From Gemmatimonadota bacterium (GTDB lineage Bacteria > Latescibacterota > UBA2968), in the NCBI GenBank assembly GCA_026706845.1, contig JAPOXY010000135.1:5266-69265 (forward strand): a stretch of 64,000 bases of DNA. The letters are read 5' to 3'. A program made the position numbers and the translations under genes. Below, one piece after another: positions 5,401 to 63,504 of the stretch. The notes below the pieces were generated by a model, which searched no databases, was not told where the DNA came from, and saw only the letters and a program-made list of their open reading frames with translations. Each line of letters starts with the position of its first letter. The first letter of the stretch is position 1.

Positions 5401-5573
5401 GAGACGATATCCAGTTCATACTGTGGATAGACCTCCTTCTGGATATGAAAAGCTGTCCAGATCCCGCCCACAATGAGGATGATCATAAACAGATTGGCCG
5501 CAATAGCATTGCGCGCCATCCAGGCAATCGGACCTCGTGCTTCTTCAAATGTATCCTGTGTCTCATTCATCAC
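2442..5573 (-). CDS. RND efflux transporter permease subunit (AcrB/CzcA superfamily), 1043 aa.
   Basis: Size and 12-TM-like hydrophobic architecture. The N-terminus '[60 protein letters not shown]' is typical of RND pumps. The ATGA overlap with the upstream membrane-fusion protein gene indicates an operon. Confidence 0.9.
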
Positions 5574-6769: not shown

Positions 6770-6784
6770 GTTATGCCTGTCCGT

Positions 6785-11757: not shown

Positions 11758-13392
11758 TTAGTGAATGCCAAACCAGAACAGATCACGTGGAGAAACAGGA
11801 TAATCCTGGCGGATAATCTGTTCCATCAGGCGATCTTTCATCTCCCGGCGTAAAGCGGCATGCTCCGGATCGTTGACAAGATTCTTCTGCTCGTCCGGAT
11901 CCGCCTCGAGGTCGAATAGCTGCTCGCCGTGTCTATCGGGATAAAACGTGTATCGGTATCTGGATGTGCGTACGGTGCGCGCCCAGGCTCCCAGAGTCCC
12001 TGGACCGAAGCATGGAAAAGATTCAACATACGCCTCATCCCGCCAATCGTCCGGCACCTCTCCACGGCAAAGCTCGACCAATGACCTTCCTGAAACTGCT
12101 GGCGCACTGTCGTCCAGGCGGCCACCAAAATGGCGAAAACGCAGGTGAGGCAGGGGCACGCCGGTCATGTTGAGAATAGTGGGACAGATGTCTTCCAGTT
12201 GCACGATTTCCTGGCATATGGCGTTCTTCTTCAGGCCGGGACCCACAATGATTAGTGGCACCCGAATACCGCCATCGTAGTGGCGCTCCTGTTTTTGCCA
12301 GAAGCCGTGATCACCGAGAAATTCACCGTGATCAGACACAAAAATGATGTACGTGTTGTCAAGACGCCCAGCGTCTTGCAAAGCCTTCCTGACCCGACCC
12401 AGTTGTTCGTCCAGGTGGGTAATGTCGGCGAAGTAGCAATGACGCTCATGGCTGAGATCCGGTATCAGGGGGGGCTGTCCATCCGAACCGGATGTAACAG
12501 CTATATCTTTCATCCAAGATGGTCGGTCGTCGCTCTCTCCGTGCAACACCCGCGCCATTTTCCGAAAATATTCGGGTGCGTCAGTATCGTTAAGCCAATC
12601 CGCGGGGACTGGAGCAGGGATTTTCTCCGGGTTGACGCGGTCCATGAATTCGCCTGGGGGACAAAACGGGCCGTGGGGTGCCACGTAGCTGATATGGGCA
12701 AAGAAAGACTGCTCCGAATGGGTGTCGCGGATGAAATTCAGCGCCCTTGCGGTTATCCACGATGACTGCGATACCTCCTCGGGAAACGGCAGCGTATAGG
12801 CCTTGGGAGAGTTCCTGGGCCACGTCTCGGTGGGGTGTGGATAACGCTCTTTAGCGGCGCGTATGGCCGGTCTCAGATCGACGCCGTCGGGACCGTATTC
12901 GGCGTAACCCGGAACAGCGGGCCAGGCCGTTGAAAGGGCCGCTTCATAATGTTCAGGATGCGCCTCTTTGACCCAGTCGAGCCACTCGCCAGCGCGGTCA
13001 TCCTCAGTGCCGTGTACGACATCGAAACCATAGGGGTGGTAGTTGTGTACGAGGCTTTCGTGATGCGGCCTGAGGTGCAGCTTTCCGAAAGCGCCAGTCC
13101 GCCACCCTTCCTTTTGCAGCGCTTGCATAAAGGTCGGAATGGCGGGATTGAGCGCGTACCCGTTCATGATCAAACCATGCGCTCTCGAACAAAGCCCGGT
13201 GGCAATCGTTGCACGGGTAGGTGAGCATACCGGATTGCTGGAGAATGTCCGGGTAAAGGACGTGCCGTTTTCACGCAGCCAGTCCAGGTTCGGCAAGGCA
13301 CAGATTCCTTTGTCCCGAGCCACTTCGAGCCACCTGGCCGACAACTGGTCAACCATAAAAAGGATAACGTTGGGTTTGTTTTGTGACTGCAT
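11758..13392 (-). CDS. Formylglycine-dependent sulfatase (S1 family), no signal peptide.
   Basis: 'PNVILFMVDQLSARW' metal site and 'CSPTRATIATG' (C-x-P-x-R formylglycine motif). Paralog of 21446..23017. Confidence 0.9.
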   Translation of the reverse strand: MQSQNKPNVILFMVDQLSARWLEVARDKGICALPNLDWLRENGTSFTRTFSSNPVCSPTRATIATGLCSRAHGLIMNGYALNPAIPTFMQALQKEGWRTGAFGKLHLRPHHESLVHNYHPYGFDVVHGTEDDRAGEWLDWVKEAHPEHYEAALSTAWPAVPGYAEYGPDGVDLRPAIRAAKERYPHPTETWPRNSPKAYTLPFPEEVSQSSWITARALNFIRDTHSEQSFFAHISYVAPHGPFCPPGEFMDRVNPEKIPAPVPADWLNDTDAPEYFRKMARVLHGESDDRPSWMKDIAVTSGSDGQPPLIPDLSHERHCYFADITHLDEQLGRVRKALQDAGRLDNTYIIFVSDHGEFLGDHGFWQKQERHYDGGIRVPLIIVGPGLKKNAICQEIVQLEDICPTILNMTGVPLPHLRFRHFGGRLDDSAPAVSGRSLVELCRGEVPDDWRDEAYVESFPCFGPGTLGAWARTVRTSRYRYTFYPDRHGEQLFDLEADPDEQKNLVNDPEHAALRREMKDRLMEQIIRQDYPVSPRDLFWFGIH

Positions 13393-21445: not shown

Positions 21446-23017
21446 CTAATGGGCGCCGATCACCACCAGGTCACGCGGTGGTAGCGGGAATTCCTGGAGC
21501 ATGACGCGGTGCATCATTTCCTTCATCAGTTGCTGACGCGCCTGCTGGTACGCCGGATCATGCACGACGTTGACCAGTTCGTCTGGGTCCCTGGTGAGAT
21601 CAAAGAGTTCTTCCCCGTCATCGCGCCCTGGCGTGACCGAGTAGCGGAACTCGCGGTTTCGCAGTGTCTCTTTCCAGGGGAACTTCATGATCCCCTCATG
21701 GAAGGGCGACTCGCACAGGCCGCCAAACGACTCGGAGAATGCCGACTGCCGCCAGTCCGAGACCCGCTCTCCCTTGCACAGAGGCATCAGCGAACGGCCG
21801 GCACATAGCGGATGGCCATCGCCGACCCCACGCCTCGACAGGGGCCTCGGGTGCTGTGCCAGAAGTGTTTCGTGCATATCCAACACGGTCGGGCAGATGT
21901 CCTCGTGCTGCACGAAGAGGTCGCAAGTGCTGCCCTGCTTCAGACCTGGTCCGGCTACAATCAGCGGGATGCGGATGACGGCGTCGTAGTGTCTGGCGGA
22001 TTTTCCACCCAGATTGTGGTCCATGAGCATCTCGCCGTGGTCAGACACAAAGATGAAGTAGCTGTTCTCCATTCTGCCGACCTGTTCCAATCGCTCCAGG
22101 ATGCGGCCGATCTGTTCGTCGAGGTGGATAAAATCGGCAAAGTAGAGCTTGCGGTAGTAGCGCCAGTCCGGTATCCGGTCAGGCCCATTCCAGTGGTCCG
22201 TGCCGTAACCGACAGGGTCGGGGATGAGATCCTCGTTGACCATATCCAGGAATCGCGCAGGTGGATGAAACGGGGGGTGGGGCTGCACATAGCTGATGTG
22301 GGTGTAGAGGGGTTGATCCGCGGGCGTTTCATCGATGAAATTCAGGGCATGTTCCGTAATCCAGTTGGTCTGCGAGATCTCTTCCGGGAAGGGTAGGGGG
22401 TAGTAGCCTTCGGTTCGGGTTTTGTTCCCTCCGTCATCGCCTTTAGCCCATGCCATTTTCTTTTTTGCCCGGCGCATCCTTTCGGTCAGGTTGATCTTCT
22501 GTTCGCCATACGAATCGTAATAAGGCAACTGAGAATTCCAATTCGCCGGGGTTGCCATGATCGCATCATAGTGTTCGGGATGCTCCTTTTCGATCCAGTC
22601 GTGCCACTCGCCAGTCCGGTTGTCTTCGGTGTTGTGTACCACATCCCAGCCGTACTCCCTGTAGTCCGGGTACGGGTAGTATTCTGAGTCAAACGGATAG
22701 AAGTGGATCTTGCCGAACGCGCCGGTTCGCCATCCGGCCATCTGCAGTGTCTTCATGAAAGTGGGGATGTCGGGATTGAGTCGGTAGCCATTGGAGAGCA
22801 GACCGTGGCCCCGGCTGGTCAGGCCCGTGGCAATGCCCGCCCGAGCCGGACAGCAGACCGGGTTGTTGGAAAACGCATTGGTGAAGGTCACGCCCATGCT
22901 CTGGAGGCGTTTCAGGTTGGGCAGGTCACAGATGCCATTCATGGCCGCTTCCAGCCACTTCGCCCCCATCTGATCGACCATGAAGAAGATGATGTTGGGT
23001 TTATTTTGTAACTGCAT
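21446..23017 (-). CDS. Formylglycine-dependent sulfatase, no signal peptide.
   Basis: 'PNIIFFMVDQMGAKW', 'CCPARAGIATG'. Confidence 0.9.
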   Translation of the reverse strand: MQLQNKPNIIFFMVDQMGAKWLEAAMNGICDLPNLKRLQSMGVTFTNAFSNNPVCCPARAGIATGLTSRGHGLLSNGYRLNPDIPTFMKTLQMAGWRTGAFGKIHFYPFDSEYYPYPDYREYGWDVVHNTEDNRTGEWHDWIEKEHPEHYDAIMATPANWNSQLPYYDSYGEQKINLTERMRRAKKKMAWAKGDDGGNKTRTEGYYPLPFPEEISQTNWITEHALNFIDETPADQPLYTHISYVQPHPPFHPPARFLDMVNEDLIPDPVGYGTDHWNGPDRIPDWRYYRKLYFADFIHLDEQIGRILERLEQVGRMENSYFIFVSDHGEMLMDHNLGGKSARHYDAVIRIPLIVAGPGLKQGSTCDLFVQHEDICPTVLDMHETLLAQHPRPLSRRGVGDGHPLCAGRSLMPLCKGERVSDWRQSAFSESFGGLCESPFHEGIMKFPWKETLRNREFRYSVTPGRDDGEELFDLTRDPDELVNVVHDPAYQQARQQLMKEMMHRVMLQEFPLPPRDLVVIGAH

Positions 23018-38284: not shown

Positions 38285-39895
38285 TCATTCTCCCGTAACA
38301 TTCGGAATGAGTGCCGACAAGCCCAGGTTTGTTAGCCGCTCGATTTCCTCCTGGAGTTCGTCGCCCTCCAGCGGACCCGCGTAGGGGGCCTGCTCGAAGC
38401 GACATGGAGACTCCACCAGGCGTGGGTCGTCGTTCTCCCATAGGAGACCCATGAGTTCGTTCGCCAGGTCTTTGCGGATCTGATCGTAGTCCGGGTTCGT
38501 GGCGACATTGTTCATGTAGTGGGGATCGACCCGAAGGTCGTAGAGTTCCTCTCGAGGACGTTTACCGAAGCCGATCTCAAAGAGGGGCTGTACATCTTTG
38601 TCGGCGCGGTGGTGAATCATCCAGGCCTTGGTTGGACCCCCATCCATGTCGGAATACGCCGGGCGCGAGCTGGCCAGGAGACTGTCCCAGGACGGCGCCT
38701 CCGCATTGGGGTCGTCGAGCCCTCGGGGATCCCCCACAGGCCAACGGTCGGGCTCAAAGTTGTGGATGTAGAGAAAGTCCCGGGTGCGGATCGCACGCAT
38801 CGGATAGGGCATGCCATCTCTCGCCATGACATTGTGGCGCTCCCGGCCCGTAACGACGGCCGTGCGCTCTGCTTCTACCTGTCCACTCCTGTTGCTTTCG
38901 AGCACAGGTAGAAGGCTGCGAGCCGTCATGCTGTCTGGGATGTCAACGCCCGCGGCGTCGAGGAAAGTGGGCGCCAGATCCATCAGGTTGACGAAGTCAT
39001 CGACGACGCGGGCAGAAGGGATGCGTTCTGGCCACCGGGCGGCCAGCGCTACCTCGCAACCGATGTTGTAAAGGTTGCACTTGGCGCGCGGGAAGCCCGG
39101 AATGCCGTGGTCGCCGCTGACGACGATGAGTGTATTGTCCAGTTCGCCGATGGCCTCGAGGCGATCGATCAGGACACCCAGACCCGCATCTACCGCCAGA
39201 CACTCTCCCAGGTAGTCGTTTACGTCTTCACGGATGTCGTGGACGTCGGGGAGGAAGGCCGGAAGGCGACCTTCCAGGTCGTCGGGCTCCAGCCCCCATA
39301 GCGCCTTGCCGGAGCCGCGCTCCCAGGTACGGTGGGTGTTGGTCGGACCCCACCAGTAGCAGAAGGGCTTTTCCGCTGGCCTCGCCTCCAGGAAGGCGTC
39401 GAAGTTCTGCCGCGTCTCTTCGAGGAGCATCTCTTTGGCCCCGTCGATTCCGAGCTCAGATGCCCGTTCGGTCGCGACGTGAGAGAAGCGGTTGTACAGC
39501 CTGCCAGCCGGCTCGTACCGCGTGCGCTCTGCGCCGTAGGGGGCGTTCATGGTTCTTCCCGGAGACCAGACCTTGTACGTGTACCCGATGTGGTAGCCAT
39601 TTTCCTCGAGAATGAGGGGATAGGTCGGAATGGTCTCGTCCCACACAGCGCCCTGCAGGATGGCGCCGAGGCCCGTCTGCCAGAAGTACTGTCCCGAGAG
39701 GATGGAACTCCGGCAGGGCGTGCAACTGGGCGCCGGAACAAAGGCGTTTCGGAAGAGCACACCTTCCTCGGCAATCCGGTCGAAGTTTGGGGTGTCGAGG
39801 AGTGCGTTAATCGCGTTTTCGCCCTCGACGGGACGGTATGCGCTGGCATAACGTCCCCAGTCGTCCGCAAAGGCAAAGAGTATGTTGGGGGGCAT
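38285..39895 (-). CDS. Formylglycine-dependent sulfatase, no signal peptide.
   Basis: 'MPPNILFAFADDWGRY', 'CTPCRSSILSG'. GGAGAA Shine-Dalgarno before the ATG at 39895. Confidence 0.9.
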   Translation of the reverse strand: MPPNILFAFADDWGRYASAYRPVEGENAINALLDTPNFDRIAEEGVLFRNAFVPAPSCTPCRSSILSGQYFWQTGLGAILQGAVWDETIPTYPLILEENGYHIGYTYKVWSPGRTMNAPYGAERTRYEPAGRLYNRFSHVATERASELGIDGAKEMLLEETRQNFDAFLEARPAEKPFCYWWGPTNTHRTWERGSGKALWGLEPDDLEGRLPAFLPDVHDIREDVNDYLGECLAVDAGLGVLIDRLEAIGELDNTLIVVSGDHGIPGFPRAKCNLYNIGCEVALAARWPERIPSARVVDDFVNLMDLAPTFLDAAGVDIPDSMTARSLLPVLESNRSGQVEAERTAVVTGRERHNVMARDGMPYPMRAIRTRDFLYIHNFEPDRWPVGDPRGLDDPNAEAPSWDSLLASSRPAYSDMDGGPTKAWMIHHRADKDVQPLFEIGFGKRPREELYDLRVDPHYMNNVATNPDYDQIRKDLANELMGLLWENDDPRLVESPCRFEQAPYAGPLEGDELQEEIERLTNLGLSALIPNVTGE

Positions 39896-39916
39896 CAATT
39901 CTCCATTCAACAATTT

Positions 39917-41908
39917 TTAAAAGTTAGCGGACAGTTCGATTCTCTTCATCACCCGCTCCAATACCCACACCCTGACGATGCCATCCCGCTGCCCACCAAG
40001 CCCGCTTGTGTAATTGTTCTTTTCGAGTTGCGCATTGTGTTCCGGTCCGAACATCTCCTGTTTATTTATGGCCTGCTCCAGGGCGGGAATAAGCGGTTTC
40101 ATGGGCTGGAGTTCTTCGCGACTGCGGTATGACAGATAGGCACCGGCTCGTAGCCTCGCCCAGAGGATATCGCTCGACAGCGCGCGCTCAAAAGCAGGCA
40201 GGGCCAGGGCGCCTTCGCCTGCCCGCACCAGATAGTCCCCAGCGGCCAGGCTGACGCTGATTGAGGGATCGTCAAGAAGGGGGGACAGGCGCTCGATCAT
40301 CTCGCGTTCCACACCGAGCGAGCAAAGGCCGGTAACAGCCCAGAAACGCACGGCGCAGTCGGGATCACCAAGTCGTTTTGCGAGTTCTTCCTTTGCTTCG
40401 TCACCCAGGCGCGCCAGGTCTGCTGTTTCCAGAATACGCTCGTAATTATCACAGTGCGCCCCGACTGCATGGCTAATGCCGTTGTACTGCTCTGCTCGCG
40501 CAGCAATTTCTGGTTCATCGATCAAGCCTAGATCGCGGGTCTCGATCATCCAGCCGAACAGGTTCTGTCGCAACCCATCCTTCACATTGCTGTAAGCAGG
40601 ATCATCTGCCAGGTTATTTATCTCTTCGGGATCGTTCTCGATGTCATACAACTCTTCGGCGGGTTTGTGATCCTGCCAGATTTGGAACTGCTGGTAGTGC
40701 TCAGGCAACCCGTCCTGTTTGATCATGACCGGCGGGCCGAGCATCAGAAATACGCCGTCGGGGTCGTGGACCTTCTGTTTGCCCGGTAGGCAAGAGGTCT
40801 CCCAGAAGGCGCGTTCCGGAGTTCCTTCCTCTGGCACTGTGGCAAAGAATCCGCCGTCTGGATAGAACGAAGCGTATGGCTGGTGGGGGAGGAAGTTGCG
40901 GAAGTAACGGTATTTTTTTGTGCGGATTGTGCGGATTACTTCTGGGTTGTTGTCCAGCCGATCCCTGGCACTGCAGACGAATTCTCTCGGTTCATCTCTG
41001 TTGGGACCGCACAGGTTGCGGCTCTGGATGTGTTCGGCAATAGGGATGCCTGATAGCTGCAGGGTCGTCGCGCAGAGGTCCATGTGCAGGACGAGTTCAT
41101 CAACCGCACTGCCGGGTTCTGCCGGGGATAGGTGCTGATACTTCTCCGGGAATCGCATGATCAGCGGGATATTCAGTCCGTCGTCGTAGGCGTGGATTTT
41201 GCCTCGGGGATAACCCGTGCCATGGTCTCCCCAATAGACCACAATAGTGTCTTCACTGTGCCCCTGCGCTTCAAGCTCGTCCAGGATCTCTCCTACTTGC
41301 TTATCGACGTTGGTAAGGGCGTCGTAGAAGAGCGCCATTCGTTCGCGGAACAGGGGGGTGTCGGGAACGAAGCTCGGAACCGGCACATCATTCGGGTCGT
41401 GCAACTCGTCGTCGCTCAAGAGCGAGGAACGCGCTTTCCGCGCATCCTCGGGCGTCAGTTTGAATACACTGGCGTGGGAACTGCCCAGTCTGTAATACAT
41501 GAAGAACGGCTTGTCTTCAGGGCGATTCTCCCAGAAATCTTCAGCGTTGTAATACTGTTCACGCTCCTCTTTGGAGACGTATAGATTGATGTCATTATCC
41601 GGCTGCGTGCAGGCGTAACCGGCGTCCGTCAGCATTGTGTTTAACAACTCAACCCCTTCAGGGCGGATGATCGCGCTGCGGTGATGATGCGTGCCCAGTG
41701 TCGTCGGATGCATGCCGGTATAGATGCCCGTGCGCGACGGTGAGCAGATTGGGCCAGCGGTGAACGCGTTGGTGTAGCGCACACCTTCTGCCGATAGGCG
41801 GTCAATATTCGGGGTATGCGCGTATTGATCTCCGTAGCAACATTATTTCCAGGCTCTGGAGTCGTGATTACTGATCAAGTGGAAATTGGGTCTGTCTTGT
41901 TTTGTCAT
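39917..41908 (-). pseudogene. Sulfatase interrupted by an in-frame TAA (41843..41845) after residue 21, carrying a C-terminal HEAT/PBS-lyase-repeat extension. Downstream of the stop, the ORF runs 621 codons from a GTG.
   Basis: The ATG at 41908 with a GGAGAA Shine-Dalgarno gives 'MTKQDRPNFHLISNHDSRAWK*CCYGDQYAHTPNIDRLSAEGVRYTNAFTAGPICSPSRTG...' in one frame. C-terminal 'LGDPDCAVRFWAVTGLCSLG...LLDDPSISVSLAAGDYLVRAG' is HEAT-like. Confidence 0.55.
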
Positions 41909-48568: not shown

Positions 48569-50803
48569 TCACACTGAGCAGTCCCCGGCGTCTGTTGTAC
48601 CGGTATCAAATGTCCATCCGTCCCACATGTTGTCAACGGTCGCTGGCACATCCTCTCGAAAGTTTCGGGTATCGACCCACCACTGACGGTTTGGTGCTGG
48701 TCCATGCGACAGGTTAAAATATGGCGTCATACCATCTCGTTGATACTCACAGGGAACAACGAGACGCACGACAGGTCGATCGCGGTCAGCAGAGCGATTG
48801 ACACCTCCCCCGTGAATAAGGCGAGGATGCCAGAAAACAACGTCCCCTGCTTTGCCGGAAAACTCCACTGGCGCAATCTCTCTCAGCACATTGTCACGGG
48901 CTTTGCTATATGGCTCTGCGAGGTCGGGGTCAAGGGGACCGTAAACAGTAGTGTGATACAAGTGACTCATGTAATGTGACCCCGGCCAGATTGTAAAGCC
49001 ACCAGAGTGCGGAGGCACCGTATCTACAAAAACCATTGCAGACAATTGAGCCGCTGTATGGTCTCCATGGGGGGCCAAACGACTTTCCGAATTTGGTGGT
49101 TTTGGAAATATACAATAGACCCCTCGCACCCGGTTTGAACGTTTAACCGGCTCGCCGATGAACAATGAAACCAACTGCCGCATACGTGGGTGGTTGGCGA
49201 TCTTATCGACAAAAAAAGGCTCTGTACCAATTTTACGCGAGCGCATCTTCCAGGTGCCGCGCGCAAATTGTCCTGCCTTTTCGGCATCCGCCGCTGTCCA
49301 CTGCCCGTGTGGCGCATCGAACCACGTTTGCACATCGTCGCGTTTGACAATCTCACGCGGCACATTTTCCCACACATAATCCACGATCCGGTCAAACGTC
49401 TCCTTCTCTTGCAGAAACCCGCGTTTCACAAGAAAACCATTCTCTTTGAAAAACGCGACTTCGGCTTCACTGAGGGTTGGGTCTCCATTCACAAATTCTG
49501 GATCGGGCAAGAGGGCGGGGTCTCCGTTCGCTAATTCTGGATCGACCAATACCTGGGGATCACGGATGACGACGTCTTCGGAAATTCTGAGCGCGTGTAA
49601 ACCGCTCCCTTCAAATGGCGGCACTAAAAGATTGTAGATTTGTTGCGCTTTCTCTTTCTGATTCATGCATGCCAATTCGGCTTTCACAGGCTCAAAATCC
49701 ATATTTAAATAAAGGTAAGCAGCGAGCCTCAGACATCTAAATGCGGGCTCTCCAGAAAAGGGTTGAATCTGTGGAAGTGTCCACTCGCGATCGCCCACCC
49801 AGTAGGGATAAAGCCAATCAAAGGCGCGTCGCATGGATCGCCCATCGGTAGATTCATAATTGGCGAGATCAATACCCCACTGTCGGCCAATTTCAGCGAG
49901 TTCTAAAAGAAGCTCCAAATTCATACTCGCGTATCCAAGTGCCTTTGTGCGTGCGAGTTCCAGAGGCTGTTGACCATCTGGCTCAATCTGATCGGCAATC
50001 CTTCTTTCTCCCACCCCTTTTAATATCATTCGCGCAAGATCTGATTGCCCCACAAAAAGCGCGAATGTCACAACCTGAATATCATAAGAACTCGAATGGT
50101 TATTGCCATGACGCGCTTCGTCAACCCCATAAGGATGCTTCAACATCCATTCGAGAAACGCGTGAAACCAGGCCTGCAAATCTTCCATATCTTTTTGGGA
50201 CCAGTTCTTAGAGTCGCGCAAAAAACTGACCGCAGGGAGCATCTCGCGTGCAAATGCCGCTGTCTCAATAAGCCCGATACCTCGCCCTTCGCATATCCCG
50301 GGTATGGCCTGTCCAAACAACAGGTTTGGGTTCATCTTGGTTTCGGGATTCATAAACCATGTTCGCAACAACAATGCAGCATGCGCCGCGTAGTCTTCTC
50401 GCTGTGTAAAACCATACGCTAACCCCAGCGTTTTCACCGTTGAAATGAATTTTGCCAACAAAGGGCGGTCCGTTTTCTCGACCTCGGGATTGACCTCGCC
50501 ATCTCGTCGGATATAAGGCAAACCGTCAGGCTTATCGGGGTCTGGCCACCAGTAAGGTCCAACACTCATGTAATCGTGTTTGTCACTACTGGCAGGCAAG
50601 ATCGGTTTGTTCACAATGGTCAGCGGTTCCTGCTTCAAAGCGGCATCCGCTTTCACAAGCAGGGCTTTAAGGGCTTGCCCACACGGGTTATCTTCCCGTT
50701 TGCTCAACGAGCGCGCCCGCTTGATATAATCGGGATCTACTGTAAATATGGGTTCAGCAGGTGAAAACGCCTTGAGCAGATCAGCTTCTTTGTCTGGATA
50801 CAT
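48569..50803 (-). CDS. Two-domain fusion: N-terminal alginate-lyase/heparinase-N-like alpha/alpha-toroid domain (~430 aa) plus a C-terminal PhyH-family Fe(II)/2OG dioxygenase domain (paralog 7).
   Basis: N-terminal 'DKHDYMSVGPYWWPDPDKPDGLPYIRRDGEVNP' is alginate-lyase-like (uncertain). C-terminal 'EAEVAFFKENGFLVKRGFL', 'APHGDHTAAQ' (H-x-D), 'HPRLIHGGGVN'. Single uninterrupted 744-aa ORF. Confidence 0.7.
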   Translation of the reverse strand: MYPDKEADLLKAFSPAEPIFTVDPDYIKRARSLSKREDNPCGQALKALLVKADAALKQEPLTIVNKPILPASSDKHDYMSVGPYWWPDPDKPDGLPYIRRDGEVNPEVEKTDRPLLAKFISTVKTLGLAYGFTQREDYAAHAALLLRTWFMNPETKMNPNLLFGQAIPGICEGRGIGLIETAAFAREMLPAVSFLRDSKNWSQKDMEDLQAWFHAFLEWMLKHPYGVDEARHGNNHSSSYDIQVVTFALFVGQSDLARMILKGVGERRIADQIEPDGQQPLELARTKALGYASMNLELLLELAEIGRQWGIDLANYESTDGRSMRRAFDWLYPYWVGDREWTLPQIQPFSGEPAFRCLRLAAYLYLNMDFEPVKAELACMNQKEKAQQIYNLLVPPFEGSGLHALRISEDVVIRDPQVLVDPELANGDPALLPDPEFVNGDPTLSEAEVAFFKENGFLVKRGFLQEKETFDRIVDYVWENVPREIVKRDDVQTWFDAPHGQWTAADAEKAGQFARGTWKMRSRKIGTEPFFVDKIANHPRMRQLVSLFIGEPVKRSNRVRGVYCIFPKPPNSESRLAPHGDHTAAQLSAMVFVDTVPPHSGGFTIWPGSHYMSHLYHTTVYGPLDPDLAEPYSKARDNVLREIAPVEFSGKAGDVVFWHPRLIHGGGVNRSADRDRPVVRLVVPCEYQRDGMTPYFNLSHGPAPNRQWWVDTRNFREDVPATVDNMWDGWTFDTGTTDAGDCSV

Positions 50804-52762: not shown

Positions 52763-52916
52763 TTTGTGTTTTTCTATGAAGTGTTGCACAACGAAATATC
52801 TTGATTGAGGTTCATTTTTGTATGTACTATTATACCAGTAGTTCTACACTCACGTTGTCTTGCGCTACACCGATCCGGTAGCGCGGACTGAACTCGAAAC
52901 AATGGGAAGAATACAT

Positions 52917-54326
52917 ATGACACAAGAACGACCACACATACTCATTCTTACGGCGGACCAGCTACGGGCGGATTCTATGGGTTGCGCCGGTCATCCACGG
53001 GTCAAAACGCCGGTCATTGACTCGCTTGCCAACGACGGCATGCGGTTCAGCAATTGCCACACCGTGTCGCCGGTCTGCCAGCCGTCGCGCGTGTCGTTCA
53101 TCACTGGCACCTACCCTCACAACCACGGCATCTGGTACAACCGCGGCGAACTGCCGATCAACTACCCGACGCTATTCTCCCAATTGCGGGACGCTGGCTA
53201 CCACACGGCAACCGTGGGCAAGTCTCACCTCTGGAGCCACAAGAAGGTGTCTCATTTGCGCGAAGGCGAGCCGTATCTGCAAGCGCTCGGCTTTGACGAC
53301 ATTGACGAACTCGGTGGACCGCGGGGGAGTCTCAACTCGGACTCGTACTTCACCGACTACCTGCGCGAGAAAGATCTGTTCGAGCTCTTCGTCAGCGACA
53401 CGCGCGAACGGGTTCGCGACCCAAAGCTCGTCAAACCGGCGGTGTTTGAGGAGGACGACCACATGGACGGGTACGTGGGCAGGCGCTCGGTCGAGTTCGT
53501 CGATTCTGCGCCCGGGGACCGTCCGACCTGTCTGTTCGTCAATTTCCCCGGACCACATGACCCGTGGGACGCGCCGGGGAAGTACGCCACCATGTACGAT
53601 CCGTCCGATTCGCCACCCGCCATCGGCGTGCCACCACGCCCCGCCACGCTCCCCGACGAGGTCGCCCAAAAGGAGGACTTCAAGACGGAGCCGGGCCTGA
53701 CCGCCGAAATCGCCGCTGCGATCCGGGCAAATTACGATGGCAAGATCACATTCGTCGATCACTGGTGCGGTGAGATCCTTGCGGCGTATGAACGACGTGG
53801 CTGGCTCGATGATCTCTGCGTCGTGTTCTGGTCCGATCACGGCGAAATGACCGGCGATCACGGCAGGGTGTTCAAACGCACCTTTCACGAATCTGCATTG
53901 CGGGTCCCCCTGATCCTGCGCTGGCCCGGACGGATACCGGCCGGTACTGTCTGCGACGCACTGGTGGAAACCATTGACGTCGGCCCTGCCTTGCTGGAAG
54001 CCTTGGGGCTCGACCAGTTGCAGATGTCCCTTGGGCAGTCGCTGGGGCATCTGTTCGCGGATCCGACCGCGCACCACCGCACCGAGGTGTTGTCAGAGAT
54101 TTTCTACGGCGGTTCGCGCAATACGATGGTGAAAACCGAACGCCACAAGTACGTCATGGATCAGCACGGCAGGGGGTACATGCTGTACGACATGCAGCAG
54201 GACCCGGATGAGCAGCACAATCTGATCGGCGATCCCGAGCATCGGGATACGGAAAACGAGATGCGGGACACGCTGCTTCGTCGCCTCGCTGCCAGCGCGT
54301 TTGTCATGGACAGCGTGAACCTTTGA
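52917..54326 (+). CDS. Formylglycine-dependent sulfatase, no signal peptide.
   Basis: 'MTQERPHILILTADQLRADSMGCAG', 'CQPSRVSFITG'. The track ORF begins at the TTG at 52860; the ATG at 52917 is preferred. Confidence 0.9.
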   Translation: MTQERPHILILTADQLRADSMGCAGHPRVKTPVIDSLANDGMRFSNCHTVSPVCQPSRVSFITGTYPHNHGIWYNRGELPINYPTLFSQLRDAGYHTATVGKSHLWSHKKVSHLREGEPYLQALGFDDIDELGGPRGSLNSDSYFTDYLREKDLFELFVSDTRERVRDPKLVKPAVFEEDDHMDGYVGRRSVEFVDSAPGDRPTCLFVNFPGPHDPWDAPGKYATMYDPSDSPPAIGVPPRPATLPDEVAQKEDFKTEPGLTAEIAAAIRANYDGKITFVDHWCGEILAAYERRGWLDDLCVVFWSDHGEMTGDHGRVFKRTFHESALRVPLILRWPGRIPAGTVCDALVETIDVGPALLEALGLDQLQMSLGQSLGHLFADPTAHHRTEVLSEIFYGGSRNTMVKTERHKYVMDQHGRGYMLYDMQQDPDEQHNLIGDPEHRDTENEMRDTLLRRLAASAFVMDSVNL

Positions 54327-55277: not shown

Positions 55278-55461
55278 AGCACCTAACTCCTTTCTGTCAT
55301 TGCGGTTTTCCTTCAGGTTGTTGGGATAAGGCATGTTAATACGTTAATCGCTTGCTGGCAATTCAATTTGCTGAGTGTTCTGAGCCTGATGTCAAAAAAA
55401 GCAGGGAGTTGACATTTCCTTTGCAGGGTTTGCGTGAATGCTCAAAATGTAGTCACAAAAA

Positions 55462-55491
55462 AATGCCAATCAGCGATTGGCATTTTTTTGT
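55462..55491. terminator. Bidirectional rho-independent terminator: A-run, 10-bp stem aatgccaatc / gattggcatt with a 4-nt loop, then T-run.
   Basis: aaaaaaatgccaatcagcgattggcatttttttg read directly. Sits 3' of the sigma-fusion gene and 5' of the PhyH gene. Confidence 0.6.
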
Positions 55492-55525: not shown

Positions 55526-57754
55526 TCAATCCGAATTGCGCTGCACCTGATTGATGCTACCGATAAATCCAAATGAGCCTAAGGGCACGTCGTCGTGGCA
55601 GCCATCCAGAATTTGCCTGCACCCTTCAAGCGTATCTTGCAGAGCCACGGTTTCGCCCGGCTTGCCTATCCAAGATTCTGTACCGTGATAGGGTTGTGTG
55701 AGAAAGAGGGCCAAACGCCGGGCGCGTAATGCAAGATCTCTTATATTTTCATCAATCAGGCTTTCAACCAGACGCCCTTCTTTGAATGCCGCCTGTAGAT
55801 TCTGGTTATCGTATTGCACAAGCGTTTGTCTCACCTGCGCCACCGTTTCTTTGTGAGCCATCTCAAGCCGGTTGTCACTCAGAAGGATTGAGCGCGACCG
55901 CTGAGGATCAATTGCTGGATACAGAGCCTCCTTGGCTCGGTGACCGCTCATGGCAATAACAGCATCTAAAAAACCGAAAGTATTACCATTGAGATCTGAG
56001 GGTTGACATCCCCAATAAAAGGTGGTAATGGCTGCTTCTGGTGTGACGAGCGCGCGCGATCTGAGAAATGGGATGATGCCTTTTTTTTGCGCCAATCCAG
56101 CTTCTACGATCAGCAGGACATTATGGCCCTGGTTGTGAAAGCCATCGGCTATGGTCAGGCCTGTTTCAACAACATGGTGGTGCCTGGTTTCAGCGTCTTT
56201 TTCACGAGCCAGTACAAAGACGGTGTTCTCTTCTAACAGCTTGCCATCGCAAACGAACTCCCGCCATTCTTTAAACTTCACCGCTGGATCTTCTCCGGCA
56301 AATCCCACAAAAACGATTCGGCCATTATGTTGCGCAATAAAGTTGCGGGCAATCTGCTCACCCAGCATCAGTACGCCCACACCAATGCACTTCTCCACAC
56401 CAACGTGGCCACCCCGCTTAAATGGCGCAAAAAGATCTACGGCCTTAATGCCGGTTTCAAGAATCGGCAAAACAGCGTCTTTAACCCCACCGCATACAAG
56501 CTGTTGCTCCGAATCGCTTATTGGATCTTCGCTGTCTATGGGTGCGCAGTCTGCATCTATCATGCGTCCGAGAACCGAAGCACCGGCAATGACTGAGCGA
56601 GATTGAGATACAGGTTTTGTTTTTTCCAATGGTTTGCGTACGGGAACACTTGGCTTTTTTGCCCCGCGCTTCACCAAAAGATTCACCAAATTCTGGCGGC
56701 CCTTTAGCGCTGCCCAGTCAGTGGCGGTATAGCCTTTTGCATCTACGGCCTCGATTTCGGCATTTGCATTGAGAAGCAGTTCTACCAGGACCTCGTCGCC
56801 GCGCATCACTGCGCGATGCAATGGCGTGTGTTTACACCAGCCTCTCGCTTCGACGTTGGCCTTTCTGTCCAGCAGCATTTGAGCCATCTGGTGCTGTCCC
56901 TGCATAACTGCATTCAATAGTGGGGTGTTTCCGCCCTTGTCTGCGGTGTTTATGTCTACCCCATGTTTGAGCAATAGATCCACCATGGGCTCATCACCGA
57001 CCGATGTCGCCCATGTCATGGGTGTCGTTCCCGGGTTGACATTCTGGTCGGCGCCTGTCCACCAATCGGCTTCAGCCTGGGCGAGTGAAGCATCGGCGTC
57101 TAACAATGTTGAAGCTGTTTCTATATCTCTCTGTTTCAAAGCGATAAAGAATCGCACTCTCGTAGCAAACGATTCGTCTGGTTGGTTTTGTTGCAGTGTT
57201 TCTTTGACCATGTTCTCCATCCTTTTTTTCAGCCCTTTTCGGGCATCGTAAAGTCGTTTCCCAACGGTTCCGACCGACACACCCAAGAACTTCGCGATTT
57301 CCTTTTGTGAATACCCCTCCAGGTAGAAGAGGGCAATGGCTTCGCGTTGTGCGCTCGGCAAAGCATTAATGGCGTCTCGCACTTCATGGCGGGTTTGCTG
57401 TTGGGTGAAAAGCACCTCTGGATTGGGCAGATCTGAAGGCAGGGTTTGAATCTCTGCTGGATCCATCATTAGAGGCCGCGACTTGCGCAGTTGGCGGTCG
57501 CTGTGTTTAACCACAAAGCGGCGAAACCAGGCCGGAAACGCAGCGGGTTCTCGCAAAGTATCCAGGCAGAGAAAAGCCTCAATAAAAGCTTCCTGTGCGG
57601 CATCCTGAGCCAGGTGAAAATCGCCGGTCTGAGCATAAGCGCTGGCATATGCCATGCTCTGGTAACGAGAAACAATATGCCCGAAAGCTTCGCTTTTGCC
57701 CAACTGAGCTGCTCGAACCAGGGTGTCTAACTTTTTTGTCTTTGGTGTTTCCAT
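55526..57754 (-). CDS. Fusion protein of an ECF sigma-70 factor (regions 2 and 4), ankyrin repeats, and a degenerate F1/T3SS-ATPase beta-subunit-like domain (pseudo-ATPase).
   Basis: Sigma region 2 'GHIVSRYQSMAYASAYAQTGDFHLAQDAAQEAFIEAF' and region 4 'SAQREAIALFYLEGYSQKEIAKFLGVSVGTVGKRLYDARKGL'. Ankyrin repeats 'GNTPLLNAVMQG..', 'HTPLHRAVMRGDEVLVELLL', 'GYTATDWAALKG'. ATPase-beta-like blocks 'LETGIKAVDLFAPFKRGGHVGV', 'GHNVLLIVEAG', 'ALYPAIDP', 'RRLALFLTQPY', 'QILDGCHDDVPLGSFGFIGSI'. The Walker A position reads 'EKCIGVGVL' (no GKT). Start codon uncertain: the track ORF starts at the TTG at 57799; the ATG at 57754 lies 15 nt after an AGGAGG. Confidence 0.75.
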   Translation of the reverse strand: METPKTKKLDTLVRAAQLGKSEAFGHIVSRYQSMAYASAYAQTGDFHLAQDAAQEAFIEAFLCLDTLREPAAFPAWFRRFVVKHSDRQLRKSRPLMMDPAEIQTLPSDLPNPEVLFTQQQTRHEVRDAINALPSAQREAIALFYLEGYSQKEIAKFLGVSVGTVGKRLYDARKGLKKRMENMVKETLQQNQPDESFATRVRFFIALKQRDIETASTLLDADASLAQAEADWWTGADQNVNPGTTPMTWATSVGDEPMVDLLLKHGVDINTADKGGNTPLLNAVMQGQHQMAQMLLDRKANVEARGWCKHTPLHRAVMRGDEVLVELLLNANAEIEAVDAKGYTATDWAALKGRQNLVNLLVKRGAKKPSVPVRKPLEKTKPVSQSRSVIAGASVLGRMIDADCAPIDSEDPISDSEQQLVCGGVKDAVLPILETGIKAVDLFAPFKRGGHVGVEKCIGVGVLMLGEQIARNFIAQHNGRIVFVGFAGEDPAVKFKEWREFVCDGKLLEENTVFVLAREKDAETRHHHVVETGLTIADGFHNQGHNVLLIVEAGLAQKKGIIPFLRSRALVTPEAAITTFYWGCQPSDLNGNTFGFLDAVIAMSGHRAKEALYPAIDPQRSRSILLSDNRLEMAHKETVAQVRQTLVQYDNQNLQAAFKEGRLVESLIDENIRDLALRARRLALFLTQPYHGTESWIGKPGETVALQDTLEGCRQILDGCHDDVPLGSFGFIGSINQVQRNSD

Positions 57755-57928
57755 AAATACTGTAGAAGGCCTCCTATATTTAAGTCCCATTTGGGTCAAA
57801 AAATATTACATGGTCAAAGAAATTATTTTTGAACACGGTTTGTTTTCAAACAGAGAGAATTTGCCCACGAGATTGATTAAATGCATGTGTGAAGAAGATG
57901 AGGCAGGTTTGGTGAGAAAATCAAGTGA

Positions 57929-58735: not shown

Positions 58736-59015
58736 TATCGTCAGCCTTGCCTTTCGTCAAAACAGTGAATTTGGACCCCTTAGAATCAAAGAAGCTATTT
58801 TCCGTTGTTGTCATAGTCCCACCGCGAACACTCACGCACCATCGGCAGTGGGCGAGATGTAAAATCATCTTTGAACAGTTTCTAAACTTTGTTAAGTTTT
58901 TGTTATGATCTTGCCCAGTTCCCAACCCTATTGAGGCTTAAGTCTATGAAACCCATGGCGCGTTTGTCGTTTTGCATACCTGCAGATCAGCGAGTAGATT
59001 TCCAGGAGGCCTTCC

Positions 59016-61127: not shown

Positions 61128-62588
61128 TCACGGTTTTTGCACGACAAATTCCGGCCGTGGAATCATGCGTTCTGGATTCCGTTCGTAACCTCGTTTCCAC
61201 AACTCCTCCACAAGCCTTCCACTTTTAGCCAGTTCTTCGCGAAGCGCCTGCTGGTCCGCCTTTGCCCTCTGATCAATCGCTTCCGGGCAGCACACCTGGT
61301 ATAGAATTCGCCGAAGCCGAGCCAGTTTCTGAGACGCCTCGGGACGCTCCGCAAGATCTTGCATCTCCAAAGGATCCTCTGCAAGGTCAAACAACATCGG
61401 TCTTTCCCCAACGCACGCCACATATTTATCTGAACCCGATCGAAGAGCAAATGCGCTTCCCGGAAGGCCCGGCCCATGGAATTCACTGATCGCGAATTCG
61501 GGAAGCGCTGCACCCGGTTCGCCCCTCAAGGATCCCAGCAAGGATGTCCCCCGCATGTGTGTTGGTGAAGGCAATTCCAGGGCTTCCGAGAATGTCTGGA
61601 AAAGATCGAGATGTGAAACGGGTGCAGGCTCGGACCCTCCTGACTCTATGCCGGGTCCAGCCACGATCATGGGTACGCGAATTGAATCCTCATACATCGA
61701 TCCCATTCCGGAATTGCGATGTGCCCCCATGCTGCCACCGTGATCCGAAGCATAGGCGACCAGCGTCGAATCCCAGAGATTCTCGGTGTCTATGGCTCTG
61801 AGCACGCGTCCCACGTTGCGATCTGCCATCTCACAGATGCCGTGGTAGCCTACCAGACCACGGCGCAACTCTTCGGGTGTGCAAAGATCGCTGCACGTGT
61901 AACGAACAAAATCCCGGTGAAAGGGGTGTAGTCGAGAAATGGGTTCCGAGTAGCGCTCGTCCAGGTCTTCGGTTCGCACCAGCGGATCGTAGTAATCCCA
62001 TAGCTCCTGTGGCGGATTCCATCCGGGATGGGGCTGTTTGATATTCACGATCAGGACCCAGGGGCGATCTTGCGGGCGTTCATTCATCAGCCACTGTACC
62101 GCTTCTTGCGCGACCTGCGCGTCGTGCTGGTGTTCCCCACGCCCACTTGCAGGACCCGCTTCCCGCAATCGATGCAGGTGGTGGTATCGGGGTTGCACAC
62201 GGCCCTCTTCGAACAGCGTGTGTACGTCCAGACTCTCCCGTGTCTTGGCCAGACGACTGTCTTCCACTCCAGCATCACTGCCCGGTTTGTAATCGAGCTT
62301 GCCAATGGTCGTAAGCACGACACCATTTTCTGCAAAGTAATGCCCCCAGCCTCTGGGCACTCCTGAATAGGGAAACGCATTGTCCCAGGTGGAGATCTCG
62401 TGGACATACCGTCCCGCCATCATCGCTCCCCGCGAAGGCGCGCACAGAGGACTTGGACAATAGGCACTGTCGAATCTCTTTCCTCGCCTGGCGAGCGCAT
62501 CGATGTGAGGCGTACGGGTAATGGGACTACCGTAACAACCAGAAAACTCAGGGTTGTGCCGATCGGTCATGATATAAACGACATTCAT
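61128..62588 (-). CDS. Formylglycine-dependent sulfatase, no signal peptide.
   Basis: 'MNVVYIMTDRHNPEFSGCYG', 'CAPSRGAMMAG'. GAGGTGA Shine-Dalgarno before the ATG at 62588. The track ORF extends to 62792. Confidence 0.9.
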   Translation of the reverse strand: MNVVYIMTDRHNPEFSGCYGSPITRTPHIDALARRGKRFDSAYCPSPLCAPSRGAMMAGRYVHEISTWDNAFPYSGVPRGWGHYFAENGVVLTTIGKLDYKPGSDAGVEDSRLAKTRESLDVHTLFEEGRVQPRYHHLHRLREAGPASGRGEHQHDAQVAQEAVQWLMNERPQDRPWVLIVNIKQPHPGWNPPQELWDYYDPLVRTEDLDERYSEPISRLHPFHRDFVRYTCSDLCTPEELRRGLVGYHGICEMADRNVGRVLRAIDTENLWDSTLVAYASDHGGSMGAHRNSGMGSMYEDSIRVPMIVAGPGIESGGSEPAPVSHLDLFQTFSEALELPSPTHMRGTSLLGSLRGEPGAALPEFAISEFHGPGLPGSAFALRSGSDKYVACVGERPMLFDLAEDPLEMQDLAERPEASQKLARLRRILYQVCCPEAIDQRAKADQQALREELAKSGRLVEELWKRGYERNPERMIPRPEFVVQKP

Positions 62589-62625
62589 CGAAGTCACCTC
62601 GTTGCGAGTTGTCAATGGCGGCATC

Positions 62626-63504
62626 TTAAGCCGTTGGAACATATCCCAGTTGATCGTTATATGCCACAGCTTCGGGAAAGGTCTCGTGAAGGTGGTCGAG
62701 AACCCTATCAATCTTACACCTGCACAAAGAGCTGGGATAGGGCATCTCGCCGGTACGCCGGAAAAATGCCCCGTTCTTTTCGTGAAAATCACCCCGCCGG
62801 TCCATGAACTGCCCCCAGTGTCCCATCGTGTATCGCATCTCTGTCCTTCTCTCAGCGCTCTGAATCCAGGCGTCGGGAAACAGCATTTGAAACCGCGGTG
62901 CCGAATTCAACCAACTGCCGCATCGAACCACTTTTACTTCCGGCCGACGTACTTGCGAATCTCTGAGCAGCCTGATTAGCGATGCCGCAAACTGTATGTG
63001 CATATCACTGAGGGGAGATTTTGGCTGGTAAACATTGGCAATATGAAGACTCAACGAGTCCTCGTGCTTGTAGTCATAATTCCAACATTCGTGTGAACGA
63101 TCGCCAGGTCCGGGCTGTTCATTGCCCAACTTGCGAATGCGCGCTTCCATAAGTGGCCAGAGGATCGCAAGTCCCCTGATCTCCACGGATTCACTATCAT
63201 TACCATACTTGTCGAAGATTTCTCCCAACTGCCCTACAATGACGTTCCATTCGAGATCTTCGTCTCCCGCTGCCGGATGGTGGTTGCCGTTGTAGAGTGA
63301 GGTATTCCGGTACAGATTGACTCGCACGTTAACGGTATCTTCCAGGTCTCCAGGGTTTTCCCGCAGCCGTTTGTTCGCGTACCAAAGGCTCAACCGGGTG
63401 AATTCCCGAACATAATGCACGCGAATCGGATCCAGATTGGACATTGATTCTACCCCCGTTGTTCGTATTGGGTTAATCTTTTCCTCTGCCGGATTTTGCG
63501 CCAT
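62626..63504 (-). CDS. Hypothetical protein (292 aa).
   Basis: Long ORF with moderate-GC codon usage. No recognisable motif. Confidence 0.45.
   Translation of the reverse strand: MAQNPAEEKINPIRTTGVESMSNLDPIRVHYVREFTRLSLWYANKRLRENPGDLEDTVNVRVNLYRNTSLYNGNHHPAAGDEDLEWNVIVGQLGEIFDKYGNDSESVEIRGLAILWPLMEARIRKLGNEQPGPGDRSHECWNYDYKHEDSLSLHIANVYQPKSPLSDMHIQFAASLIRLLRDSQVRRPEVKVVRCGSWLNSAPRFQMLFPDAWIQSAERRTEMRYTMGHWGQFMDRRGDFHEKNGAFFRRTGEMPYPSSLCRCKIDRVLDHLHETFPEAVAYNDQLGYVPTA

Follow-up and report, generated by a model that had tools for sequence, protein, structure and literature searches.

Several groups of extracytoplasmic function (ECF) σ factors carry a long C-terminal extension behind a core made of Regions σ2 and σ4, among them ECF41 with a SnoaL-like extension, ECF42 with tetratricopeptide repeats (TPR), and ECF238 with a Cys-rich extension. 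According to the accessible descriptions (PMC7826278), such proteins are cytoplasmic and one-component-like, have no adjacent anti-σ gene, and bear extensions whose type tracks the phylogeny of the core; for ECF41 and ECF42, contact between core and extension was inferred from this tracking. In the classical ECF operons that encode RpoE-RseA and SigW-RsiW, the σ gene is autoregulated and is followed by a translationally coupled gene for its partner. ECF σ factors constitute a major bacterial signalling family, and for most of the extension-bearing groups both the signal and the mechanism are unexplained. The subject of this work is a gene within a 64,000-nt stretch (positions 5,266 to 69,265 of contig JAPOXY010000135.1, assembly GCA_026706845.1; hereafter, the window) from a bacterium of the Latescibacterota lineage UBA2968. 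Its product joins an ECF σ core to ankyrin (Ank) repeats and to a degenerate paralogue of the β subunit of F1-ATPase. It resembles the extension-bearing groups in overall plan. However, neither its ankyrin/F1 β extension nor the occurrence of the β-like module as a separate gene in the +1 position is mentioned in the accessible descriptions of those groups, and its promoter motif differs from theirs. More generally, an ankyrin or ATP-synthase-β extension of an ECF σ factor was not found in the accessible literature, including the main texts of Casas-Pastor 2021 (PMC7826278), Pinto 2020, and a 2022 review.

A preliminary description, made from the sequence alone, had proposed three modules in one chain, and this architecture proves to be real by Pfam, NCBIfam, phmmer, and AlphaFold2/Foldseek, with Sigma70_r2, Sigma70_r4, Ank, and ATP-synt_ab all matched above cut-off (Table 1). 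The σ portion matches Sigma70_r2 with 33.5 bits (cut-off 24, residues 43-107) and Sigma70_r4_2 with 61 bits (cut-off 25.7, residues 138-188); PF04542, PF08281, and PF07638 are each above cut-off, and the NCBIfam model TIGR02937 (sigma70-ECF), with a cut-off of 42.9 bits, is matched with 84.6 bits. Profile searches for σ70 Regions 1.1 and 3 gave no match in the fusion protein, which thus has the profile of an ECF (group 4) σ factor: Regions 2 and 4 only, with scores above the curated thresholds. The motifs of σ2 and σ4 are invariant among 61 family sequences. Where at least three ankyrin repeats had been claimed, four are present at about residues 220-390 (Pfam Ank/Ank_2, above curated cut-offs). 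An AlphaFold2 model, built on the 61-sequence family alignment, likewise has four helix pairs plus an N-cap at residues 194-362, with a predicted local distance difference test (pLDDT) value mostly above 90 in this part. For the whole fusion, the mean pLDDT is 85.6 and the predicted template modelling (pTM) score is 0.79, which suggests that the three modules of the 742-residue chain hold a defined mutual arrangement. A transmembrane-type segment was sought in the protein and none was found; the maximum 19-residue hydropathy is 1.38, ruling out a membrane-anchored system.

About 360 residues of the fusion protein are homologous to F1-ATPase β. ATP-synt_ab is matched from residue 450 with 54.5 bits (Pfam cut-off 29.5). 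The nearest NCBIfam models are those of F-type β, alt-F1 β with 148 bits and atpD (TIGR01039) with 143.1 bits, both far under their equivalog cut-offs (462.85 for TIGR01039). When residues 400-757 were compared with the PDB by phmmer, F1 β chains were matched with E values of 3e-42 to 1e-33 in two collinear stretches over the nucleotide-binding and C-terminal domains. Foldseek with the AlphaFold2 model, a check that the preliminary description had proposed, also returned F1 β chains as the best PDB matches for the C-terminal part (E about 1e-20, about 390 columns, target-normalised TM score 0.55-0.61). The preliminary description had likened the domain both to F1 β and to the ATPases of flagellar and type III secretion systems (T3SS). 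The first half of this comparison stands and the second falls: FliI and SctN score only about 68 and 62 bits, versus 143-148 bits for F-type β, and with all of the best PDB matches being F1 β, a FliI/T3SS-type origin is ruled out.

The window protein shares with AtpD the fold, the order of the nucleotide-binding and C-terminal domains, and the YPAIDP and RARR.Q.FLTQPF motifs, at an identity of 27-30% (about 43% for the stand-alone forms discussed below). Unlike AtpD, it has no N-terminal barrel, no GK[T/S], no phosphate-binding Arg, and a deletion of about 25 residues, which follows Walker B; it is also encoded outside any atp operon. The barrel is missing altogether: PF02874 has no match, and β is aligned only from about its residue 80, past the barrel, whose place is filled by the ankyrin repeats. 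The fusion protein is therefore not an AtpD: score, Walker A, barrel, and operon context all speak against it, and the fold alone agrees. In the P-loop, GGAGVGKT of F1 β aligns without gaps to KCIGVGVL, so that the loss of the P-loop Lys and Thr, as first noticed, is seen as Val-Leu at those positions. The catalytic GERTRE segment, which had been described as replaced, gives a divided answer. Its Arg is indeed lost (Asp in the phmmer alignment) and is mostly lost family-wide, but phmmer still aligns a Glu with the catalytic Glu, and hmmalign places the segment differently.

To view these residues across the family, 88 non-identical fused sequences, 56 stand-alone sequences, and seven genuine β subunits were aligned. 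A canonical GK[S/T] is present in all seven genuine β subunits and in none of the fused (0/88) or stand-alone (0/56) sequences. The Walker A Lys by itself is kept in 30/88 fused and 36/56 stand-alone forms (7/7 genuine), the Walker B position is D or E in 73/88 and 50/56 (7/7 genuine, all D), and the equivalent of Y345 is Y, W, or F in 81/88 and 56/56 (7/7 genuine). Immediately after the Walker A Lys position, the residue is with few exceptions L, M, I, V, or F. At the first P-loop glycines of β, the majority of fused members carry Thr-Pro, and the counterpart of bovine R189 has mostly disappeared. The positions equivalent to F418 and F424 stay aromatic or hydrophobic, the Pro after the Tyr (P346) never varies, and conservation is strong in RARRL..FLTQPF. 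The DELSEED region varies from member to member, with indels. Here Y345, F418, F424, P346, and R189 are numbered as in bovine F1 β, and we take the first three to form the adenine pocket. Because no family member has GK[S/T], the β-like domain cannot act as a canonical ATPase, and the family as a whole is, to judge from its residues, a pseudo-ATPase with respect to hydrolysis, in agreement with the non-hydrolysing domain that had been predicted (0/144 members with GK[S/T]). Binding of an adenine ligand is conceivable for the members that keep the Lys and doubtful for the window protein. Compared with the orthologue that is 96% identical, the β-like domain has 21 synonymous and 14 non-synonymous differences; the resulting pN/pS of 0.21 is consistent with purifying selection, although these are small numbers, the whole orthologue comparison comprising only 58 substitutions.

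The same σ-Ank-ATP-synt_ab architecture, which the preliminary description had asked to be sought in databases, is found in several phyla and in independent assemblies. A search of 5.8 billion proteins yielded about 65 clusters, nearly all with 30-96% identity to the query over 91-98% of its length, and more than 80 non-identical full-length fused relatives are available, mainly from metagenome-assembled genomes (MAGs) of Chloroflexota, Gemmatimonadota, and Latescibacterota. Among named relatives, MAG proteins of Gemmatimonadota and Latescibacterota come closest, with 49-61% identity. In a scan of one genome per species, in which all genomes carrying family copies are MAGs, fused copies occur in Chloroflexota (Caldilineales, Anaerolineales, Aggregatilineales), Gemmatimonadota, and one gammaproteobacterial MAG; a fused Latescibacteria protein is among the database matches, and a deltaproteobacterial MAG copy is uncertain. 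Copies matched in Herpetosiphonaceae, Ktedonobacteraceae, Chloroflexia, and one Latescibacterota MAG are split forms. The architecture is already in public databases, unnamed or misnamed: in the source annotations, for several members those of JGI, fused proteins (P0018, P0029, P0047, P0053, P0059) and stand-alone pseudo-β proteins (P0256, P0258-P0260) are wrongly named "F-type H+-transporting ATPase subunit beta", a systematic misannotation.

The split forms came to light when the σ cores of related loci were extracted. The σ-Ank and β-like open reading frames (ORFs) are separate in nine loci, from Herpetosiphonaceae (L017, L021), Chloroflexia (L019, L035), Latescibacterota (L022), Ktedonobacteraceae (L024, L025, L031), and Chloroflexales (L030). 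In all nine the break falls in the linker between the ankyrin and β-like parts. The β-like ORF encodes 343-376 residues and has its own ATG, which is preceded by a GGAGG-like sequence or overlaps the upstream stop codon as ATGA; the separation is due to an in-frame stop codon in two loci and to a change of frame in the rest. With this mixture of stops and frame changes, the split loci are not random sequencing errors. In addition, an exhaustive HMMER search with the C-terminal domain of the window protein has 48 stand-alone pseudo-β representatives of 316-395 residues (most 340-375) in its best 150 matches, next to fused ones. Four stand-alone pseudo-β proteins (P0136, P0258, P0259, P0256) form an independent sample, picked by similarity of the β part alone, and in all four the gene directly upstream on the same strand encodes σ-Ank, with a spacing that ranges from a 71-nt overlap to a 26-nt gap; their other neighbours are unrelated. 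The arrangement varies further at a few loci. At L035 (5967-8300), σ, Ank, and pseudo-β are apparently three separate ORFs, and the arrangement at L018, L028, and L040 is unclear, perhaps owing to frameshifts.

By the Rosetta-stone argument, the occurrence of both fused and adjacent split forms marks the pseudo-β as a probable dedicated partner of σ-Ank. In the split forms, the pseudo-β gene holds the +1 position usual for anti-σ genes and often overlaps the σ-Ank gene. It resembles in this respect the downstream partners of RpoE and SigW, but it lacks an ASD or ZAS domain and a membrane span and has a RecA-like ATPase fold, and its σ factor carries ankyrin repeats. No anti-σ gene with an ASD/ZAS domain was found near the σ gene in the window or in eight homologous loci. 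The proposal of a fused regulator made up of the C-terminal modules thus gains strong indirect support, with a pseudo-β gene adjoining σ-Ank in many genomes and no classical anti-σ gene nearby. The least diverged stand-alone pseudo-β still shares about 43% identity with genuine β along 96% of its length, which points to recruitment from atpD. The presence of the same parts as two adjacent genes in other bacteria suggests that part of the ATP synthase was taken over as the private regulator of a σ factor. A small sister group (P0082, P0071, P0081) has σ fused straight to a barrel-keeping β, with no ankyrin repeats. In a neighbour-joining tree of the σ core only, a quick tree without support values, fused and split Ank-β forms cluster together, apart from relatives with ankyrin repeats only or with other extensions. 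This is the pattern from which core-extension contact was deduced for ECF41 and ECF42 (PMC7826278).

Most family genes are preceded by a common element. Of 25 non-redundant family loci, 23 carry the motif GTAACCTTT-N11-TGGGACTT with fixed spacing, 25-165 nt upstream of the start codon. With a position weight matrix built without the window copy, that copy scores 25.0 bits, against a maximum of 16.4 bits in ten simulated 64-kb sequences, and it is the sole match with three or fewer mismatches in the window (0.02 expected). Among 86 fetched loci (947 kb, relatives with other extensions included), 62 have a single match that scores 17 bits or more, and in 61 of these it lies just upstream of the σ gene, on the strand of that gene. 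As GTAACC-N15-GGGAC, the element has the features of an ECF promoter, namely a bipartite layout, usually autoregulatory, with an AAC-containing -35 element, although this assignment comes from conservation alone. Since an ECF-type motif precedes the σ gene family-wide, the predicted promoter is read as the means by which the σ factor positively regulates its own gene. The promoter of Caulobacter σF (ECF16), GTAACC-N16-CGAA (PMC3511200), has the identical -35 hexamer and a similar bipartite layout. However, the family has GGGACTT at -10 where the σF promoter has CGAA, its spacer has one base fewer, and σF itself has a membrane-bound regulator and no extension.

A near-palindrome accompanies many of these promoters. 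Its consensus is TAGAAGGCCTTC(TA), also written TAGAAGGCCTTCTA. About 11 of 24 family promoters have it at one and the same offset (besides the window, L003, L006, L008, L009, L011, L012, L016, L018, L021, and L026), as do several metagenome sites. It lies around the predicted transcription start, which would fall about 7 nt past GGGACTT, and may act as an operator or belong to the first stretch of the transcript. At L005 (7308-7336), the family promoter lies about 690 nt upstream, before a phosphoribosyltransferase gene that precedes the σ gene, which suggests that the two genes may form an operon. Some single genomes carry paralogues of the σ clade, with both Ank-β and Ank-only members: L026, L052, and L063 in a Caldilineaceae MAG, and L007 and L056 in a Gemmatimonas MAG. 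Near-identical motifs precede L026, L052, L007, and L056, while L063 has no match of at least 17 bits, and the question is raised whether paralogues in one genome may cross-activate each other.

The promoter also bears on the start of the gene. The single uninterrupted frame of 757 codons reported at 55526-57799 is present, on the minus strand, when it is counted from a TTG codon, and it contains all of the peptide strings that had been quoted. The frame thus stands, but the TTG at 57799 does not hold as its start. The 96%-identical orthologue is called from METPKT, equivalent to the ATG at 57754, other family members begin at the same position, and both the upstream TTG and an ATG three codons later fall within the conserved promoter. 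The true start is thus almost certainly the ATG at 57754, giving a predicted protein of 742 residues.

Taken together, an intact ECF core, conservation across phyla, a dead P-loop, the existence of fused and split forms, a promoter of its own, and the lack of an anti-σ gene support the view that the fusion is probably a cytoplasmic, autoregulated ECF σ factor governed by a fused, non-hydrolysing partner derived from F1 β. A soluble ECF σ would drive its own transcription from the GTAACC-N15-GGGAC promoter. Its built-in partner would consist of an ankyrin adaptor and an F1 β paralogue that has lost both the hexamer-forming barrel and the residues for ATP hydrolysis, so that the fusion would be the single-chain version of the two-gene cassette of σ-Ank and stand-alone pseudo-β. 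Ank and pseudo-β may dock on or clamp the σ2/σ4 core and set its access to RNA polymerase (RNAP), in the manner of an anti-σ factor acting in cis. A cytoplasmic cue sensed by pseudo-β would then shift the equilibrium of σ; this cue might be either a ligand, bound in the aromatic, adenine-type pocket that has been retained, or a protein binding to the β-like surface, and it would act through the hinge between the nucleotide-binding and C-terminal domains that is typical of β. Positive autoregulation would amplify the response. Soluble, cytoplasmic σ partners built on an ATPase-type fold have a precedent in SpoIIAB and RsbW. These, however, have a GHKL kinase fold, are active enzymes, switch partners with an anti-anti-σ factor, and are not homologous to pseudo-β.

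Such a mechanism would add a new class of cytoplasmic σ regulator and an unusual case of an ATP-synthase subunit co-opted for gene regulation. The partner would be a paralogue of a well-understood machine and offers testable features in the dead P-loop, the retained aromatic pocket, and the two-domain hinge. The natural fused and separate forms ease binding and in-vitro transcription work, and the precise motif serves for reporters and regulon prediction. The family also flags a recurrent annotation error and draws attention to further σ factors that are joined to copies of housekeeping enzymes.

Several points weigh against the view of a pseudo-β-governed σ factor. Contact of the C-terminal modules with the σ core is something we infer, and the predicted status of the promoter follows from its conservation. 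Nucleotide sensing is doubtful for a window protein without the P-loop Lys. Target genes other than the σ gene itself were identified neither in the window, nor in the 947 kb of related loci, nor in a metagenome-wide scan. The σ-core tree, as said, is a quick one without support values. Finally, control by Ank/pseudo-β may be negative or positive; the TPR extension of ECF42 is reportedly required for activity rather than inhibitory.

The last point leads to the strongest alternative, in which Ank/pseudo-β is a co-activator needed for σ activity, for example by stabilising an RNAP-competent form or by contacting RNAP or DNA. It would account for the same fused/split and co-clustering evidence, and a tightly coupled, autoregulated operon suits an obligate co-factor. 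However, relatives of the same clade with the same promoter motif carry other extensions or ankyrin repeats only; because of this, the core presumably recognises the promoter without pseudo-β, and we regard the co-activator as unlikely, if worth serious weighing.

Sensing of energy or of adenine nucleotides, with a degenerate site that binds ADP, ATP, or another adenine compound without hydrolysing it and with its occupancy controlling σ, appears rather improbable. Its logic would be like that of the nucleotide-dependent anti-σ factors SpoIIAB and RsbW. The aromatic or hydrophobic character of the presumed adenine-pocket positions (Y/W/F at the Y345 equivalent in 81/88 fused and 56/56 stand-alone forms), the invariant P346, the P-loop Lys kept in 36/56 stand-alone and 30/88 fused forms, and the mostly acidic Walker B position would all fit such a sensor. 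The Mg-coordinating Thr/Ser, however, is never present, the R189-equivalent Arg is mostly lost, many members have Thr-Pro at the first P-loop glycines, and the window protein itself has Val-Leu for Lys-Thr. The conserved aromatics may be merely structural.

The wider σ clade, defined by a shared motif after σ4 (RPS.DD.FA..V) and by the promoter, brings in another possibility, since its extensions include copies of other essential housekeeping proteins. These are a PheS-like class II aminoacyl-tRNA synthetase core (P0116, E = 2e-40; L060, L062, L082, L053), SAICAR synthetase (PurC; L081:5998-7434, E = 3.5e-73), the RNA-binding domain of Rho (L085:5995-7158), T2SS-F (P0119), and a weak GNAT match (L079), besides TPR repeats and long ankyrin arrays. 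The clade may thus wire copies of housekeeping proteins to a σ factor, as ligand sensors or decoys. That the clade as a whole consists of integrated decoys or enzyme-mimic sensors, each copy sensing whether its genuine counterpart is under attack or has its ligand bound and turning this into transcription, is distinctly improbable at present; if true, the F1 β version would couple the ATP synthase of the cell to a transcriptional alarm. The narrower proposal, that pseudo-β mimics ATP-synthase β as a guard, captures an inhibitor, toxin, or phage protein, and so frees σ for counter-measures, strikes us as highly improbable. Besides the PheS-like, PurC, Rho, and T2SS-F fusions, it can draw on the 43% identity of the least diverged stand-alone pseudo-β to genuine β, as would be expected of a mimic. 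But this support is purely circumstantial, metabolite sensing accounts equally well for enzyme-derived domains, and the examined loci have no defence-island context (no PADLOC scan was made).

In the same clade, the Ank-only relatives of about 420-460 residues (L038, L039, L041, L045, L047, L061, L064-L066; Acidobacteriota and other MAGs) are followed by a gene for a conserved ankyrin-repeat protein of about 260 residues, often with overlapping stop and start codons and with an N-terminal segment that resembles a signal peptide.

A dedicated role in regulating the flanking sulfatase, PhyH-dioxygenase, and polysaccharide-lyase genes, as originally suggested, now looks very improbable indeed. 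By Pfam, the window forms an island of sulfatase, polysaccharide-lyase, and PhyH genes, and the σ gene lies between PhyH-like and sulfatase genes both here and in the 96%-identical orthologue. But the neighbourhoods of eight more distant homologous loci are unrelated, with no neighbour gene shared with the window; neither the 64-kb window nor any of the related loci (947 kb) has a further site for the promoter motif; and the σ gene has its own promoter and terminator. With no shared neighbours and no motif at other window genes, this role is unsupported, though indirect control or degenerate sites at the sulfatase locus are possible. When exact copies of the motif were sought metagenome-wide, 111 sites emerged, of which 43 lie before σ-clade genes, 18 at contig ends, and 50 before assorted genes. 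These 50 are left uninterpreted because their number is about that expected by chance for 17 specified bases, by a rough estimate. Finally, an assembly chimera or frameshift that joined unrelated genes, for which only the odd combination of domains speaks, can be dismissed, as assemblies from ENA, JGI, NCBI, and Logan yield over 80 non-identical sequences with the same collinear architecture, and the copy with 96% identity comes from a contig of 4.8 Mb (ERZ24894577:ctg522435l).

Table 1. Features of the σ-ankyrin-pseudo-β gene and its flanks (positions in the window)
Feature	Position	Strand	Basis and remarks
ECF σ - ankyrin - pseudo-F1-β fusion coding sequence	55526..57754	minus	742 residues plus stop; profile matches, orthologue start, AlphaFold2 model
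σ Region 2	57479..57673	minus	Pfam PF04542; DAAQEAF and FPAWF motifs invariant in family
σ Region 4 (helix-turn-helix)	57224..57388	minus	Pfam PF08281 and PF04545; followed by clade-specific motif MV..L...P.(D/E).FA..V
Ankyrin domain, N-cap plus four repeats	56660..57175	minus	Pfam Ank/Ank_2; AlphaFold helix pairs
Lys/Pro-rich linker	56603..56659	minus	lower pLDDT; split point of the two-gene forms elsewhere
Degenerate F1-ATPase β nucleotide-binding domain, without N-terminal barrel	55874..56602	minus	Pfam, NCBIfam, phmmer, Foldseek
Walker A loop remnant GVEKCIGVGVLM	56366..56401	minus	Lys to Val, Thr to Leu; ungapped alignment to F1 β
F1 β C-terminal helical domain (RARRLALFLTQPY...)	55529..55873	minus	stretch closest to genuine β; 85 bits to F1 β by itself (phmmer)
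Predicted ECF-type promoter GTAATATTTTTTGACCCAAATGGGACTTA	57781..57809	minus	family consensus GTAACCTTT-N11-TGGGACTT(A); -35 GTAACC, 15 nt, -10 GGGAC
Near-palindrome TAGGAGGCCTTCTA	57763..57776	.	4-5 nt downstream of -10; contains likely ribosome-binding site AGGAGG
Bidirectional intrinsic terminator hairpin	55455..55491	both	17-pair stem, T-runs on either side; begins 35 nt past stop codon
σ70-like promoter match TTGAAA-16-AATAAT (10/12)	57822..57849	minus	consensus scan; possible basal promoter, weak

Matches of the σ70 type around the gene are no more numerous than in shuffled sequence, and Rfam gave nothing significant around the gene.

The remainder of the window (11758-13392, 21446-23017, 38285-41782, 52860-54326, 61128-62792, 2442-8161) holds at least six sulfatase genes confirmed by Pfam, polysaccharide lyases (PL4-like and pectate-lyase-like), and an RND (resistance-nodulation-division) pump; this efflux pump comes with an outer-membrane factor, which points to a diderm organism. 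An ORF of 744 residues at 48569-50803 (minus strand) carries two domains, alginate lyase (PF05426, E = 4e-86) and PhyH dioxygenase, and several further PhyH-like ORFs flank the σ gene. The orthologue locus, L001, is syntenic with the window save for an IS605/TnpB (Cas12f-like) gene at L001 7698-8822, which lies between 2-hydroxyacid dehydrogenase and PhyH genes and is absent from the window at about 58736-59015.

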